Part shown: piece after piece, positions 58,292 to 62,173 of the stretch
Position numbering within the stretch: the first letter of the stretch is position 1
Layout of the letters: every line of letters begins with the position of its first letter
Assembly: GCA_963666975.2 (NCBI GenBank)
Contig: CAXVYR010000004.1
Span: forward strand, 1,024,001-1,088,000
Reading direction: 5' to 3'
Origin: Terriglobia bacterium
Lineage (GTDB): Bacteria; Acidobacteriota; Terriglobia; 2-12-FULL-54-10
Length of the DNA: 64,000 nucleotides
Notes under the pieces: generated by a model
Database searches by the model: none
What the model was told of the DNA's origin: nothing
The model's input: only the letters and a program-made list of their open reading frames with translations
Translations under genes and position numbers: made by a program

Positions 58292-58888
58292 TTATGAATC
58301 AGAGGTGTGGGAGAGACGGTCGAGCAGCACGCTCAGAGGTTCCGCCTTGCTTGCCTGAACCGAAACGCCGTAAAGCTGATTCCGGTCGCTTTGCGGAACC
58401 AATTGGTAGCCTCCCTGGCCGAACAGCGCGTCCAGAGCTTGCCGAATGGCGGGTTGCAGTTGCTCATCCGTGGCGGGAGTATTGGGAGTCTCCAGACGGT
58501 CATTGAAGCGGAGGTCCAGCGAGTCGGTCCGGAGACGGACGCCTGGAGGAAACTCTTTCTCCGCCACCAGGAGGTTGGACAGCGCCAGACACCACTCGAT
58601 GGCAGAGAGAATTCTTGCCGGGTGGGAGCCGGTCAAGCCTTTTTTGGCGGCGTATAAAATGCCGGGGCCGGGGTCGCCCATGTCAAAGGAAAAGTTACAG
58701 CGCTGCCCAATCAGCACAATCCCAGGCCCCCGCGAGACATGCGCGTAGTCGGCCATGTCCACCCAATCGGCGGGATGGCCCTCTTGTTTGCGCCAGCGGC
58801 CAAAGATGGTAATGAAGGAATCCAGGCTGAGCGACGCAGGCGCATCGCTGCCGATTCTGATTTGAAGCCGCTGCAAGTCTTGGATCAA
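58292..58888 (-). CDS. Hypothetical protein downstream of the sulfite reductase-like gene
   Basis: Same strand as the reductase; WVDMADYAHV..GPGIVLIG; TTG start inferred. Confidence 0.65.
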   Translation of the reverse strand: MIQDLQRLQIRIGSDAPASLSLDSFITIFGRWRKQEGHPADWVDMADYAHVSRGPGIVLIGQRCNFSFDMGDPGPGILYAAKKGLTGSHPARILSAIEWCLALSNLLVAEKEFPPGVRLRTDSLDLRFNDRLETPNTPATDEQLQPAIRQALDALFGQGGYQLVPQSDRNQLYGVSVQASKAEPLSVLLDRLSHTSDS

Positions 58889-58994
58889 ATTCGGAATCCT
58901 AAGCTTTCCTGAGACAAGAAGTGGAGTACGCAAAGCATGGCGAATAGTACGGCGCAGAGTTGCACCCACAACCGTGAACTGCCGGTGCAGCCCC

Positions 58995-61148
58995 TCAGGC
59001 CAGCGCGCCTCCCATGCGGCTGTACACGCCGTGAGCTTCCTCAATAAACAGTGTCGCCTCTTCCACGCGCTGATGGGCTTTTTCCGCGCTCAGGTTCTCG
59101 GGTCCCTCCCGGACGGCGCGGAAAAAGTACTCGCCGATCATGGGAATGAATTTGCCATTTTCGCCGAAGTGTTTGCGGAACTCCTCGACCGTATCATAGC
59201 GGTCGGAAAGCAGCAGCCCGCGGGTGAAAAGAAGTCCATCGGCCGCCTTTTTCATGGCCTGCAAGGCGGTGCCGGCTGCCTCCCCCAGGCGTCCCGCTTC
59301 CAGGTGCAGCGAGGCCTCAAACTCCATTCGGTCGGCATCCTCCAGCAGGAACTCTGCTTGGTCCACCACCTCCCCGGCGCATTCGCCCACACCGGTTGAC
59401 ACAAAGTAATCCCAATCCTGCCGGTTGTCCCGGTAATATTCCGGGTGTTCGTCGTACTCCGGCAAGTGCTCGAACTCGGCCAGTTCCTGCTTCATGCGGG
59501 CCTTGCCCAGCCGGTTGGTGAACTCGGTGAAACCTTCTGAACCGCTCCGTTCCGCCGTGTAGAGACCCGTCAGCTTCCGGACCACCGCCGGAGCGTCCTT
59601 GCTGGCAATCTTGCCCACCGAAAGGCCGAAGGAGGCGGCATTGCCCTCCGGCTTCCCTCCCAACACAACCTGAAAAATCGGCACGACATGCTGCCCCTTA
59701 CGGCGGCTGGACCCGAAGAAGCCGATATGGGCTATGTGGTGCTGCCCGCAAGCATTAAAGCAGCCGCTGATCTTAATGCGAACATCTTTCCGCTCCGCCA
59801 GATCTCCCATCCCGTTCTGAAAATCCTGGTGCAGGACGGCTGCCAGGCCCCGCGAGGAAGTAATCCCCAGCTTGCAAGAGTCCGTGCCGGGGCATGCAGT
59901 GATGTTGGCCATGCCCTCCGCCCCCGGCTGCGCCAGATCGAGCGCCGCCAGGTCTTGATAGAGCGCCGGCAGCTCGCCCGTGGGAACCCAGCGTATCAGA
60001 AGATTCTGGTCCACAGTGGTGCGGACGGTATCGTTGACATACTTGCGGCACACCCCGGCCAGAGAGTGCAACTGGCGGGCCGTGATGTCCCCCAGAGGAA
60101 GAAACACGGTCACCATCGAGTAGCCCTCTTGCGCCTGCGGACGCACATTCATCCGCATCCACTTTTGGAATTTGTCCGATGTGCCGGTCAGTTGCAGCGG
60201 CGAGCCGGGCTTCAGCGGCTTCTCTTGATCGGCTCCGGCTTCCGATAGGTGCTCGGTCCACTGCGGATCGTGAGGGAGCTTTTTGCGTTCTTCCCGGACT
60301 TGAGCGGCGAACTCGTCCATGCCGAGCTTTGCCACCAGGAACTTCATCCTGGCCTTGGCCCGGTTTTTCTTTTCGCCCAGCCGTGCAAATACGCGGGCAA
60401 TGGCCTGGGCCACGGGAAGCATCTCCCCGGCGGGAACAAAATCGCTGTAGAGCTTGGCTTGGTGGGGAATGGCCCCGAGCCCGCCGCCGAGGTAGACTTG
60501 AAATCCTCGCTGGAGCTTTCCGCTCTCTTCCCGCACCGCCGCGATGGCTCCGATGTCGTGAATGATGGCCAGCCCGCAGGGGTGCTGGCGGCAGCCGGAA
60601 AAGGCAATCTTGAATTTGCGCCCAAAATTCTGGGCATCGGGGTGGCGCAACAGAAAATAAGCCATCGCCCGTGCGTGGGGGGTTACATCAAAGGACTCGT
60701 CCGAGCAGACGCCCGATTGCGGGCAGGCGGTGACGTTGCGCACCGCGTTGCCGCAGGCCTCGCGCGTGGTGATGCCCGCCTCCGCCAGCCGGCGCATCAG
60801 GTTCGGCGTGTCGTTGATGTCCACAAAGTGAAACTGGATGTCCTGCCGGGTGGTGATGTGGCTGATCCCGTCGGCGTACTCCTCGGAGAGGTTCGCCAGC
60901 TCTTCCATCTGCCGTGTGGTCAGTATGCCGAGCGGGATCTTGATGCGCAGCATCTGCACCCCCGCCTGTCGCTGTCCGTAAACGCCGTGGCGGAGGCGAA
61001 ACTCCAGGAAGACCTTCTCCGGCATCTGCCCTTGCTGCACGCGGCGCAACTCGGTCTCATAGATGTCAATTTCTTCCCGGACCGCCTGTGGCAGATGCTG
61101 CCACCGCTCCGCTTGCTTTGCGGGTACCGATGCAGTTTGCTCGCTCAT
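58995..61148 (-). CDS. Siroheme/4Fe-4S sulfite (or nitrite) reductase with a C-terminal helical extension
   Basis: GVYGQRQ, MLRIK, TTRQDIQ, RNVTAC, RKFKIA, CPGTDSC, SGCFNACG. Sulfite is favoured because of the Cys leader. Confidence 0.9.
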   Translation of the reverse strand: MSEQTASVPAKQAERWQHLPQAVREEIDIYETELRRVQQGQMPEKVFLEFRLRHGVYGQRQAGVQMLRIKIPLGILTTRQMEELANLSEEYADGISHITTRQDIQFHFVDINDTPNLMRRLAEAGITTREACGNAVRNVTACPQSGVCSDESFDVTPHARAMAYFLLRHPDAQNFGRKFKIAFSGCRQHPCGLAIIHDIGAIAAVREESGKLQRGFQVYLGGGLGAIPHQAKLYSDFVPAGEMLPVAQAIARVFARLGEKKNRAKARMKFLVAKLGMDEFAAQVREERKKLPHDPQWTEHLSEAGADQEKPLKPGSPLQLTGTSDKFQKWMRMNVRPQAQEGYSMVTVFLPLGDITARQLHSLAGVCRKYVNDTVRTTVDQNLLIRWVPTGELPALYQDLAALDLAQPGAEGMANITACPGTDSCKLGITSSRGLAAVLHQDFQNGMGDLAERKDVRIKISGCFNACGQHHIAHIGFFGSSRRKGQHVVPIFQVVLGGKPEGNAASFGLSVGKIASKDAPAVVRKLTGLYTAERSGSEGFTEFTNRLGKARMKQELAEFEHLPEYDEHPEYYRDNRQDWDYFVSTGVGECAGEVVDQAEFLLEDADRMEFEASLHLEAGRLGEAAGTALQAMKKAADGLLFTRGLLLSDRYDTVEEFRKHFGENGKFIPMIGEYFFRAVREGPENLSAEKAHQRVEEATLFIEEAHGVYSRMGGALA

Positions 61149-61179
61149 TTACTCCCCCCTTTTATTCCCCTTTGTGGCG

Positions 61180-61224
61180 AAAAACAAAAAACCCACCCCG
61201 GAGCGCTCTTCCGTGGTGGGTTTT
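61180..61224 (-). terminator. Intrinsic terminator in the reductase leader (attenuator)
   Basis: AAAACCCACCACGGA-7 nt loop-TCCGGGGTGGGTTTT followed by TTGTTTTT. Confidence 0.85.
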
Positions 61225-61285
61225 CCTTGTAAAGATTATTTCTGAATGATCTTGTTAAGGACTAGCCATCCCCCACCCGCCGGAG

Positions 61286-61345
61286 CTACACACAACAACA
61301 GCAACAGCAGCACATGATCCGGCGAAGATGGGATTTCCCGCGCAT
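61286..61345 (-). CDS. Cysteine-rich leader peptide MRGKSHLRRIMCCCCCCCV
   Basis: Seven consecutive TGC/TGT codons just before TAG; AGAAGGGG ribosome-binding site upstream. Confidence 0.85.
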   Translation of the reverse strand: MRGKSHLRRIMCCCCCCCV

Positions 61346-61518
61346 CTATATATTTTCCCCTTCTGCCTAAGGCCAGTCAATAGGGAATTCACTTTGCCAA
61401 TCTGTTAAAAGAGCCAGCATCGCGGGAACTTTTTTTTCAAGTATCCATTTTTTCGAGTATCCATCGAGTCCCAGCGCCGTCGACGTCATCTGAGGCAACC
61501 AAGGTTGACACCAAGAGG

Positions 61519-61902
61519 CTACTCCTTGTCCTTCAACAAGGAGGATAAATCGGCGAACGGCTTGTAAGTGGCAGGTTGCTTTTTCTCGCCGATTGGTGTT
61601 GCCTCATCAGTTCCCCCTTCATTCCAATAACGACCGTGCTCATCATCGTGACAATAGAGACACAGGAGTTCCCAGTTGCGACCGTCGGGCGGGTTGTTGT
61701 CGTGGTTGTGGTCCTTGTGATGGACCGTGAGCTCACGAAGATTCTTAGGGGTAAATTCGCGTCCGCACCTGGCACAAATCCAGGGGTAGAGCTTGAGCGC
61801 CTGCTCCCGATAGCCCTGATTTCGCTGCTCCAGGATGCGGCGGGTCTCCGCGACGACCGGGTCCAACTTGTCGGGGTCTGGGCTTGTACGTTTCAATGGC
61901 AT
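61519..61902 (-). CDS. yajD: YajD-family HNH nuclease
   Basis: YREQALKLYPWICARC, HHKDHNHDNN, NWELLCLYCHD, TYKPFADL. Confidence 0.9.
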   Translation of the reverse strand: MPLKRTSPDPDKLDPVVAETRRILEQRNQGYREQALKLYPWICARCGREFTPKNLRELTVHHKDHNHDNNPPDGRNWELLCLYCHDDEHGRYWNEGGTDEATPIGEKKQPATYKPFADLSSLLKDKE

Positions 61903-62173
61903 TCACGCGCCCTTCCGCTTTCCCCGGACGGGACAAGCCTAACCCTTGTCTGCGATGGACTTGTTCATGACGCCTATCCTTTATCCTTTATCCTTCACAG
62001 GAAACCCTCGCGCAGACGACAGGAATGGCTCAATTAGACTGCCTCCCAACCTGCTGGTCAAGGGCAAAGCATCCTTTGGCAAAAAACCGTGCCGGGAAAG
62101 TTGTGACTTGGTCCCCACACGTTTTAGCCGAGCCGCGAGCGACTGGTCAGTTCCAGAGCGCTTCCGTAGCTTG

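Follow-up and report, generated by a model that had tools for sequence, protein, structure and literature searches.

A candidate poly-cysteine leader attenuator upstream of a NirA/Sir-family reductase gene in a Terriglobia bacterium

Organization of the reductase leader

The minus strand of a 64,000-nucleotide stretch of the genome of a Terriglobia bacterium of the phylum Acidobacteriota (contig CAXVYR010000004.1, positions 1,024,001 to 1,088,000), here called the window, carries a candidate cysteine-responsive leader in front of a gene encoding a reductase of the NirA/Sir family (Table 1). The leader is composed of a predicted promoter, a short upstream open reading frame (uORF), four pairing segments, a nested middle hairpin, and a U-tract, and is followed by the purine-rich Shine-Dalgarno region of the reductase gene. 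The uORF is 19 codons long, and seven of its codons form an uninterrupted run of cysteine codons, the proposed site of ribosome stalling. Segment 1 lies within the uORF, and segment 2 begins right after the uORF stop codon. Segment 2 resembles the 3′ arm of the terminator and can partner either segment 1 or segment 3; the pairing with segment 3 forms the antiterminator.

The first-pass annotation of this DNA had described a uORF with seven consecutive TGC or TGT codons, a post-stop segment that mimics the terminator 3′ arm and pairs with the 5′ arm, an extension of that pairing by TCCTT/AAGGA and AAGAT/ATCTT, and a strong hairpin with a U-tract ahead of the reductase's ribosome-binding site. 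All of these features are present in the minus-strand sequence; the two extending pairs are nested in the middle hairpin, and the terminator hairpin spans positions 61220-61192. Segment 1, the fourth pairing segment, was absent from that description.

The length of the cysteine run exceeds chance. Across the genome (4.23 Mb), read in all six frames, TGY codons (TGC or TGT) form 610 runs of three, 44 of four, two of five, and none of six. The sole run of seven, which is also the longest in the genome, is the one in this leader.

Table 1 Features of the reductase leader and operon in the window
Feature	Position	Strand	Basis
Predicted sigma-70-type promoter, TTGACT-17-GAAAAT	61352..61380	-	promoter consensus scan
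Leader uORF MRGKSHLRRIMCCCCCCCV, ATG at 61345, TAG stop at 61288-61286	61286..61345	-	sequence
Run of seven Cys codons (TGC TGC TGT TGC TGT TGT TGT), proposed stalling site	61292..61312	-	sequence
Segment 1 CCCATCTTCGCCGGA (CCCATC..CGCCGGA), within the uORF, anti-antiterminator partner of segment 2	61318..61332	-	minimum free energy fold
Segment 2 CTCCGGCGGGTGGGGG, right after the uORF stop	61270..61285	-	sequence, folds
Nested middle hairpin, TCCTT..AAGGA around AAGAT..ATCTT	61224..61261	-	folds
Segment 3 CCCACCACGGA, terminator 5′ arm	61210..61220	-	fold, alignment
Segment 4 TCCGGGGTGGG, terminator 3′ arm	61192..61202	-	fold, RNAalifold consensus
U-tract TTTTTTGTTTTT, predicted attenuated 3′ end	61180..61191	-	sequence
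Reductase Shine-Dalgarno region AAAGGGGGGAG, purine-rich	61152..61162	-	sequence only
NirA/Sir-family siroheme/[4Fe-4S] reductase, 717 amino acids, ATG at 61148	58995..61148	-	Pfam, NCBIfam
Probable second operon gene, conserved part of about 195 amino acids (residues ~52-250)	58292..59044	-	tblastn

The scan of the leader region for promoters identified one promoter-like site, whereas shuffled sequences averaged 0.5. The -10 hexamer of this promoter ends 6 nucleotides before the ATG of the uORF. The purine run AGAAGGGG, which had been proposed to be the uORF's ribosome-binding site, sits inside the promoter spacer, and it is therefore probably promoter DNA rather than a ribosome-binding site. 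Because the -10 hexamer ends so close to the ATG, AGAAGGGG is probably untranscribed and the uORF probably leaderless. Promoters were also scanned at 45 related loci, 32 of which reached a best score of at least 8.5 of 12. At 29 of these 32 well-scoring loci, an in-frame start codon is located 5-14 nucleotides past the -10 hexamer, so that a Shine-Dalgarno sequence would hardly fit in between, if at all. Therefore, as judged from promoter consensus, the uORF probably has no leader or almost none.

Mutually exclusive helices of the leader

The helix formed by segments 1 and 2 (helix 1:2) has a predicted energy of -28.2 kcal/mol in the window. Helix 2:3 with its nested hairpin reaches -22.3 kcal/mol, and helix 3:4 reaches -18.9 kcal/mol with its A/U extension, the terminator hairpin without the extension being at -16.3 kcal/mol. 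As modeled, the order 1:2, 2:3, 3:4 is the hierarchy needed by a trp-type attenuator. The minimum free energy (MFE) structure of the free full-length leader combines helices 1:2 and 3:4; helix 1:2 consists of 7 + 7 base pairs in this fold and encloses the cysteine run in its loop. When the transcript ends before segment 4, the MFE structure contains the 2:3 pairing. The folding energy of the leader as a whole is unremarkable, with a z-score of -0.91, and the information is in the alternative helices rather than in the whole-leader energy. The reductase Shine-Dalgarno sequence, about 30 nucleotides past the terminator 3′ arm, takes part in no pairing in the predicted folds.

A promoter and terminator scanner did not list the terminator, probably because its stem has an internal A/G mismatch. 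A permissive cmscan of positions 60500-62000 against Rfam (E up to 10) returned no relevant family; the best overlapping match, Cgb105, scored 21.3 bits, where the gathering score is 163.

Conservation of the leader at reductase loci

Reductase orthologues were found in 45 of 61 related genomes. Scanning the regions upstream of orthologues for poly-cysteine uORFs, a check proposed in the first-pass annotation, identified the cysteine cluster at all 13 family-level orthologous loci (L001-L011, L016, and L017). The cluster comprises 3-11 cysteine codons and lies about 110-200 nucleotides before the reductase start, and it has an in-frame start codon at 12 of the 13 loci. Every one of the 13 also has a hairpin of the form CC(C)RCC..GGYGG with a T-rich tail behind it, as well as the G-rich segment.

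More distant loci were taken from metagenome contigs, of which 69 of 80 were analyzed; the 11 left out had their match at or near a contig end. The uORF is present on 8 of 10 contigs with reductases 72-78% identical to that of the window, and the two contigs that lack it hold merely 44 and 154 nucleotides of upstream sequence. A diverged leader of the form M..AC.CC(C/R)Y..P.CG. occurs on 15 of 32 contigs with reductases of about 50% identity, and these diverged leaders carry the same CCCACC..GGTGGG terminator with a T-run. As a negative control, loci with 54-69% identical reductases were searched for short uORFs with at least three consecutive cysteine codons, and 0 of 71 and 0 of 27 loci had one. 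The set of 71 came from 78 of 80 loci analyzed, and the control loci belong mostly to Bryobacterales, with others from Planctomycetota and Poribacteria. One metagenome contig (L119) has about 200 nucleotides with two extra GC-rich hairpins between the terminator and the reductase start, which may be an inserted repeat.

The cysteine cluster is the only part of the leader peptide common across the class. The number of cysteines ranges from 3 to 13 among relatives, and the length and termini of the peptide also vary freely. The N-terminal motif GKSHL.R recurs in the leader peptides of the closest relatives, and its conserved SHL.R codons coincide with segment 1. In the window and at locus L002, the uORF ends before segment 2; its stop codon is located 20-40 nucleotides further on in most relatives, where the peptide tail RRVG is translated segment 2. 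Since the position of the stop varies and the nucleotides of segment 2 are kept in either case, selection at segment 2 acts on the RNA and not on the peptide.

Occurrence of the element upstream of other sulfur genes

A search with the covariance model R1 of the element identified a second copy in this genome, at positions 1670761-1670875 of contig C4 (minus strand; 48 bits, E 1e-8). The uORF of the second copy reads MRFCYSKPANTQTMVSGQMACCCMCCCTSAGAGGSGLN and contains CCCMCCC, and its terminator is perfect, CCCACCAACCG..CGGTTGGTGGG followed by a T-run. The gene after it encodes a TauE/SafE permease of 301 amino acids (L195:9820-10725, minus strand), and the only family-assigned neighbor on its upstream side, a DAHP synthase gene, is on the opposite strand. 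The same pairing of leader and TauE gene is found in six relatives (L225-L229 and L231). The element of the window is very probably one of at least two cysteine attenuators in this genome.

Within the class, R1 matches 40 of 151 genomes (E up to 0.001), or 37 of 148 when three unpublished genomes (G080, G099, and G107), which entered this tally only, are left out. By family, matches occur in 12 of 13 genomes of f1, 10 of 19 of f5, 7 of 19 of f7, 8 of 20 of f9, 1 of 7 of f11, and the single genome of f12, and in no genome of f2, f3, f4, f6, f8, f10, and f13. Of 151 genomes sampled from the phylum, 8 have a match, 6 of them outside the class.

Among the matches that were inspected, the downstream gene encodes a NIR_SIR reductase at 11 scanned loci and at two more that coincide with known orthologous reductase loci. 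A TauE gene follows at seven loci, at one of them with a PAPS reductase gene behind it, and PAPS reductase is the first gene at another locus. ATP sulfurylase genes follow at two loci, and a rhodanese gene and a gene for a Pyr_redox_2 enzyme at one locus each. The three copies in front of genes for 1-Cys peroxiredoxins (AhpC/TSA; L223, L232, and L233) suggest that in some relatives the thiol-dependent defence against peroxides is linked to the supply of cysteine.

Four R1 matches were rejected as cysteine leaders. Two of them (L224 and L234) precede genes resembling thiamine pyrophosphate (TPP)/acetolactate synthase genes, and the other two (L240 and L241) precede anthranilate synthase genes in another class of the phylum, where the uORF ends in ..NRYYWWY(H/R), a trp-type leader; both types have a similar terminator. 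The raw R1 tallies slightly overstate the number of cysteine elements, because such leaders stay counted in them. These non-cysteine leaders also show that the phylum makes general use of attenuation by leader peptides. In the single-contig genome G003, which contains loci L008 and L231, the ATG of the uORF is off frame, the TauE gene is split into two open reading frames (ORFs), and a TGA interrupts the reductase match; these frame breaks are probably assembly indel errors.

Covariation and partner preference of the helices

Pairing was scored on an alignment of 19 family sequences. The terminator pairs in 82% of cells, as compared with at most 51% when the partners were slid, and the core of the antiterminator pairs in 85.6%. 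Helix 1:2 pairs in 72.9% of cells, and its covariation of 0.174 exceeds the 0.120 of shuffled alignments, with 1 of 500 shuffles reaching it. The RNAalifold consensus structure is the terminator. On a larger model-based alignment of 49 rows (46 full-length matches and three partial or reverse ones), which was fitted to the terminator structure and whose related sequences are not independent, the terminator pairs in 90.2% of cells against 81.8% in shuffles (0 of 500) and covaries at 0.263 against 0.123 (0 of 500).

The antiterminator was tested free of column alignment, by comparing the binding of the post-cysteine segments of 46 leaders to their own and to permuted terminator 5′ arms. The segments bind their own arms at a mean of -15.25 kcal/mol and permuted arms at -13.6 kcal/mol (0 of 5000; 0 of 3000, z -5.5), figures that do not represent probabilities because the related sequences are not independent. 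The preference persists when the arm is reduced to its inner part (z -4.1) and when the set is limited to the 38 distinct arms (z -5.3). Neither reversed arms (z +0.9) nor the middle region (z +0.2), used as controls, give such an effect. Taken sequence by sequence, the duplex energies of segments 2 and 3 are weak for many loci, with shuffled upstream regions equal or better in 0 to 96 of 200 cases, because the region is G-rich.

The reductase and the neighboring genes

The regulated gene had been annotated as a sulfite reductase gene. Its product belongs to the NirA/Sir family, with Pfam matches to NIR_SIR (1.8e-52) and NIR_SIR_ferr (1.6e-40), and its specificity for sulfite is presumed. The best NCBIfam match is to the NirA family protein (6.2e-82), under the curated cut-off, and the relatives in the Protein Data Bank (PDB) are plant nitrite reductases and NirA of Mycobacterium tuberculosis (1zj8). 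A C-terminal extension of about 165 amino acids stretches beyond the NIR_SIR core (58995-59490, minus strand). At locus L016 of genus g2, an in-frame TGA occupies the position of Met ~552 at the border of the core and the extension, which suggests that the reductase is split at L016 and fused in the window. Selenocysteine was considered for the in-frame TGA codons of some orthologues and rejected for the one at L016, as this codon aligns with Met ~552 at the domain border.

The probable second gene of the operon adjoins the 3′ side of the reductase gene and overlaps its end as drawn. Its product has no Pfam or NCBIfam family, and its Atlas clusters, from Acidobacteriota and Myxococcota, hold only hypothetical proteins. 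In tblastn searches, the conserved part of about 195 amino acids was found right after the orthologous reductase at at least 65 of 73 related loci from Acidobacteria and Planctomycetota. The protein may be an unrecognized partner of this reductase type. The neighboring gene upstream of the leader (61519-61902, minus strand) encodes an HNH nuclease of the YajD family (NCBIfam E 5.9e-49) and is not part of the element.

Discussion

We consider it highly probable that the leader is a four-segment, ribosome-mediated transcription attenuator that senses charged tRNA-Cys. The attenuator interpretation of the first-pass annotation is thus retained, with support from comparative genomics and from predicted helix energies. 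The element most likely turns on sulfur assimilation when cysteine is short.

From the anatomy of the leader, its conservation, the helix energies, and the associated genes, we infer the following course of uORF translation, ribosome stalling, and response to cysteine. Transcription would start at or next to the AUG of the uORF, so that the nascent RNA would present segment 1 within the uORF, segment 2 after the cysteine run, and segments 3 and 4 as the arms of the terminator. When cysteine is plentiful, the ribosome would pass the seven cysteine codons and reach the stop codon, where its footprint would extend over segment 2 in its 5′ part; the uORF of most relatives would be translated straight through this segment. 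With segment 2 masked, segment 3 would pair with segment 4 and the polymerase would halt in the U-tract. A leader that is not translated would adopt helices 1:2 and 3:4 and would also terminate. When charged tRNA-Cys is scarce, the ribosome would stall on the first cysteine codons and cover the 3′ half of segment 1. The freed segment 2 could then pair with segment 3 as soon as it is made, before segment 4, and the nested middle hairpin would stabilize this antiterminator. The antiterminator would block the terminator, and the reductase operon would be transcribed. The same module would control the TauE/SafE permease of this bacterium, and in relatives the majority of the steps in sulfate assimilation.

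Several observations weigh against this reading, besides the fitting of the larger alignment to the terminator structure. Folding with constrained ribosome footprints, a check suggested in the first-pass annotation, did not cleanly separate the stalled from the terminating state in full-length or truncated leaders. The terminator persists in most footprint states of the full-length leader, with a probability of 0.72-0.99 in the window, and in truncated transcripts of the window the probability of the 2:3 pairing is 0.90 in the free RNA, 1.00 with a stalled ribosome, and 0.81 with a ribosome at the stop codon. Since equilibrium folding with footprints does not discriminate between the states, the switch must be kinetic, and these folds are not counted as support. 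In the alignment of 19 sequences, covariation of the terminator and of the antiterminator is not above that of shuffles, because the CCCACC/GGTGGG cores are nearly invariant. Segment 2 of the window itself binds foreign arms at -16.8 kcal/mol, as well as it binds its own at -17.7 kcal/mol. Of 21 runs, the two on record as RNA gave exact contigs of 151-191 nucleotides in the interval 59000-61500, all inside the reductase ORF and none on the leader; these two runs also yielded pieces from other organisms and are uninformative on the start, end, or regulation of the transcript. Sulfite and nitrite reductases are indistinguishable from sequence alone. The TGY repeat, when shifted by one base, reads as leucine codons (CTG or TTG), and at L008 the ATG and the cysteine run are out of frame by one base, in an assembly that has other frame breaks.

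The poly-cysteine uORF could instead control translation, with a stalled ribosome opening a structure that conceals the reductase's ribosome-binding site and the hairpin and U-tract being incidental. Leaderless poly-cysteine short ORFs act in this way at Ms5788 of Mycobacterium smegmatis (bioRxiv 10.1101/834739), and the uORF of the window is likewise predicted to be leaderless. We nevertheless regard translational control as very unlikely here, as the GC-rich stem with its U-tract is present at all 13 family-level loci and covaries in the 49-row alignment. The Shine-Dalgarno sequence lies well beyond the terminator and is free of predicted structure, and the conserved element next to the cysteine run is complementary to the terminator arm and not to the Shine-Dalgarno sequence. 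Slightly less credible still is a uORF whose product is itself functional, as a cysteine-rich micropeptide with metal or redox activity for instance, accompanied by a hairpin that acts as an ordinary terminator or a partial attenuator and plays no part in cysteine sensing. Cysteine-rich small peptides exist, and the recurrence of the GKSHL.R motif in the closest relatives would fit such a function. The class, by comparison, shares only the cysteine cluster of a peptide that varies in length, termini, and number of cysteines; the RRVG tail is kept as nucleotides even beyond the stop codon, the GKSHL codons are RNA segment 1, and the module precedes unrelated genes that have only sulfur and cysteine metabolism in common.

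Leucine sensing through the shifted frame of the repeat is a remoter prospect. It would account for locus L008, whose only ATG is in that frame, but the genome concerned has other frame breaks, such as the TauE gene split in two, and the start codon is in the cysteine frame at the remaining 12 family-level loci. Furthermore, the interrupted runs (CCCMCCC, CCCCCCNCCCCC, and C.CCCY) are cysteine-rich in the cysteine frame only, and the controlled genes serve sulfur assimilation rather than leucine synthesis. Finally, the hairpin might be the terminator of the HNH gene, which ends 170 nucleotides upstream on the same strand, next to a random cysteine ORF. This chance juxtaposition has a negligible probability in our view and is already contradicted by the conservation data from sequence comparison. 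The run of seven is the only one in the genome, and the module recurs in 40 of 151 genomes. A promoter is predicted between the HNH gene and the uORF, and the second copy has as its only family-assigned upstream-side neighbor the DAHP synthase gene on the opposite strand.

As a cysteine-sensing attenuator, the element can be compared with several known systems. The classical attenuators of Escherichia coli and Salmonella (trp, his, leu, thr, ilv, and pheA) are ribosome-mediated and depend on leader peptides. The element described here shares with them a short uORF in which several codons in a row specify the end-product amino acid, four segments forming mutually exclusive helices 1:2, 2:3, and 3:4, the last of which is an intrinsic terminator with a U-tract, and a cargo of biosynthetic genes for the sensed amino acid (NIR_SIR reductase, for which sulfite specificity is presumed, TauE, PAPS reductase, ATP sulfurylase, and rhodanese). 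It differs from them in sensing cysteine, in occurring in Acidobacteriota, in the predicted leaderless uORF, and in the regulatory codons being located in the loop between segments 1 and 2 rather than within segment 1. None of the leader families of Rfam matches it.

The first-pass annotation stated that cysteine-rich leaders have mainly been predicted in Actinobacteria. Such a prediction exists: short ORFs with cysteine runs near their stop codons precede cys and cbs operons in Actinobacteria (Seliverstov et al. 2005, PMC1262725). The statement is otherwise too narrow, as a translational version has been shown by experiment in mycobacteria (bioRxiv 10.1101/834739) and a terminator-based version has been predicted for cysS of Rhodobacterales (PMC8632094). 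The actinobacterial leaders resemble ours in the cysteine runs near the stop codon and in their position before cysteine genes, but that article reports that no conserved terminator hairpins were found and suggests Rho-dependent termination (PMC1262725), whereas both terminator and antiterminator are explicit here.

In M. smegmatis, leaderless poly-cysteine short ORFs attenuate cysteine loci, and their response to cysteine was shown by experiment (Canestrari et al., bioRxiv 10.1101/834739; later Mol Microbiol 2020). At the locus dissected in that work, a stalled ribosome frees a sequestered ribosome-binding site, a mechanism that its authors contrast with terminator-based attenuation. The mycobacterial "Cys ribulon" and the acidobacterial element have in common a poly-cysteine short ORF before several independent cysteine and sulfur loci, a placement by which stalled ribosomes would coordinate a regulon. 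The short ORF is leaderless in mycobacteria, and promoter consensus predicts the same for the acidobacterial one. In contrast to the dissected mycobacterial locus, the acidobacterial leader has a conserved intrinsic terminator and an antiterminator, and its Shine-Dalgarno sequence is unpaired rather than sequestered. The two systems belong to different phyla, and no sign of sequence homology between them was seen.

The uORFC-8-2 motif before cysS of Rhodobacterales is a predicted attenuator with two tandem cysteine codons in its uORF (Brewer et al. 2021, PMC8632094). Like the element of the window, it combines tandem cysteine codons with a terminator stem and a U-run in a predicted ribosome-mediated attenuator. 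Its two cysteine codons are inside the first stem, whereas there are seven in the window and 3-13 in relatives, located in the loop of helix 1:2. Its cargo is a cysteinyl-tRNA synthetase in alpha-proteobacteria, unlike the reductase and assimilation genes of Acidobacteriota. In agreement with the first-pass annotation, a full-text literature search, with supplementary lists not covered, found no description of such an attenuator for Acidobacteria or for a sulfite reductase. The mechanism is a known one, and what is new is its occurrence in a phylum whose cysteine regulation was undescribed.

We give about even weight to the broader proposal that the entire sulfate-assimilation pathway of Acidobacteriota is organized as a ribosome-operated Cys ribulon. 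It would comprise ATP sulfurylase, PAPS reductase, sulfite reductase, a TauE-type permease, rhodanese, and 1-Cys peroxiredoxin, with independent, probably leaderless poly-cysteine uORFs and intrinsic terminators replacing a regulator of the CysB or CymR type, and it would be a counterpart of the mycobacterial system that acts through transcription termination and arose separately.

The regulation of cysteine synthesis and sulfur assimilation is essentially uncharted in Acidobacteriota, a dominant and poorly studied phylum of soil bacteria. The element would offer a simple, testable mechanism, and its sequence by itself marks out a regulon, made up of the sulfite reductase and TauE permease genes in the genome studied here and, in relatives, of sat, cysH, rhodanese, and peroxiredoxin genes. 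It helps to assign ambiguous genes, namely the NirA-type reductase as a sulfite reductase, the TauE/SafE permease to sulfur assimilation, and the conserved protein of about 195 amino acids as a reductase partner. The candidate attenuator would extend terminator-based cysteine leader attenuation beyond a single alpha-proteobacterial prediction, and would place the logic of the mycobacterial Cys ribulon at the level of transcription.

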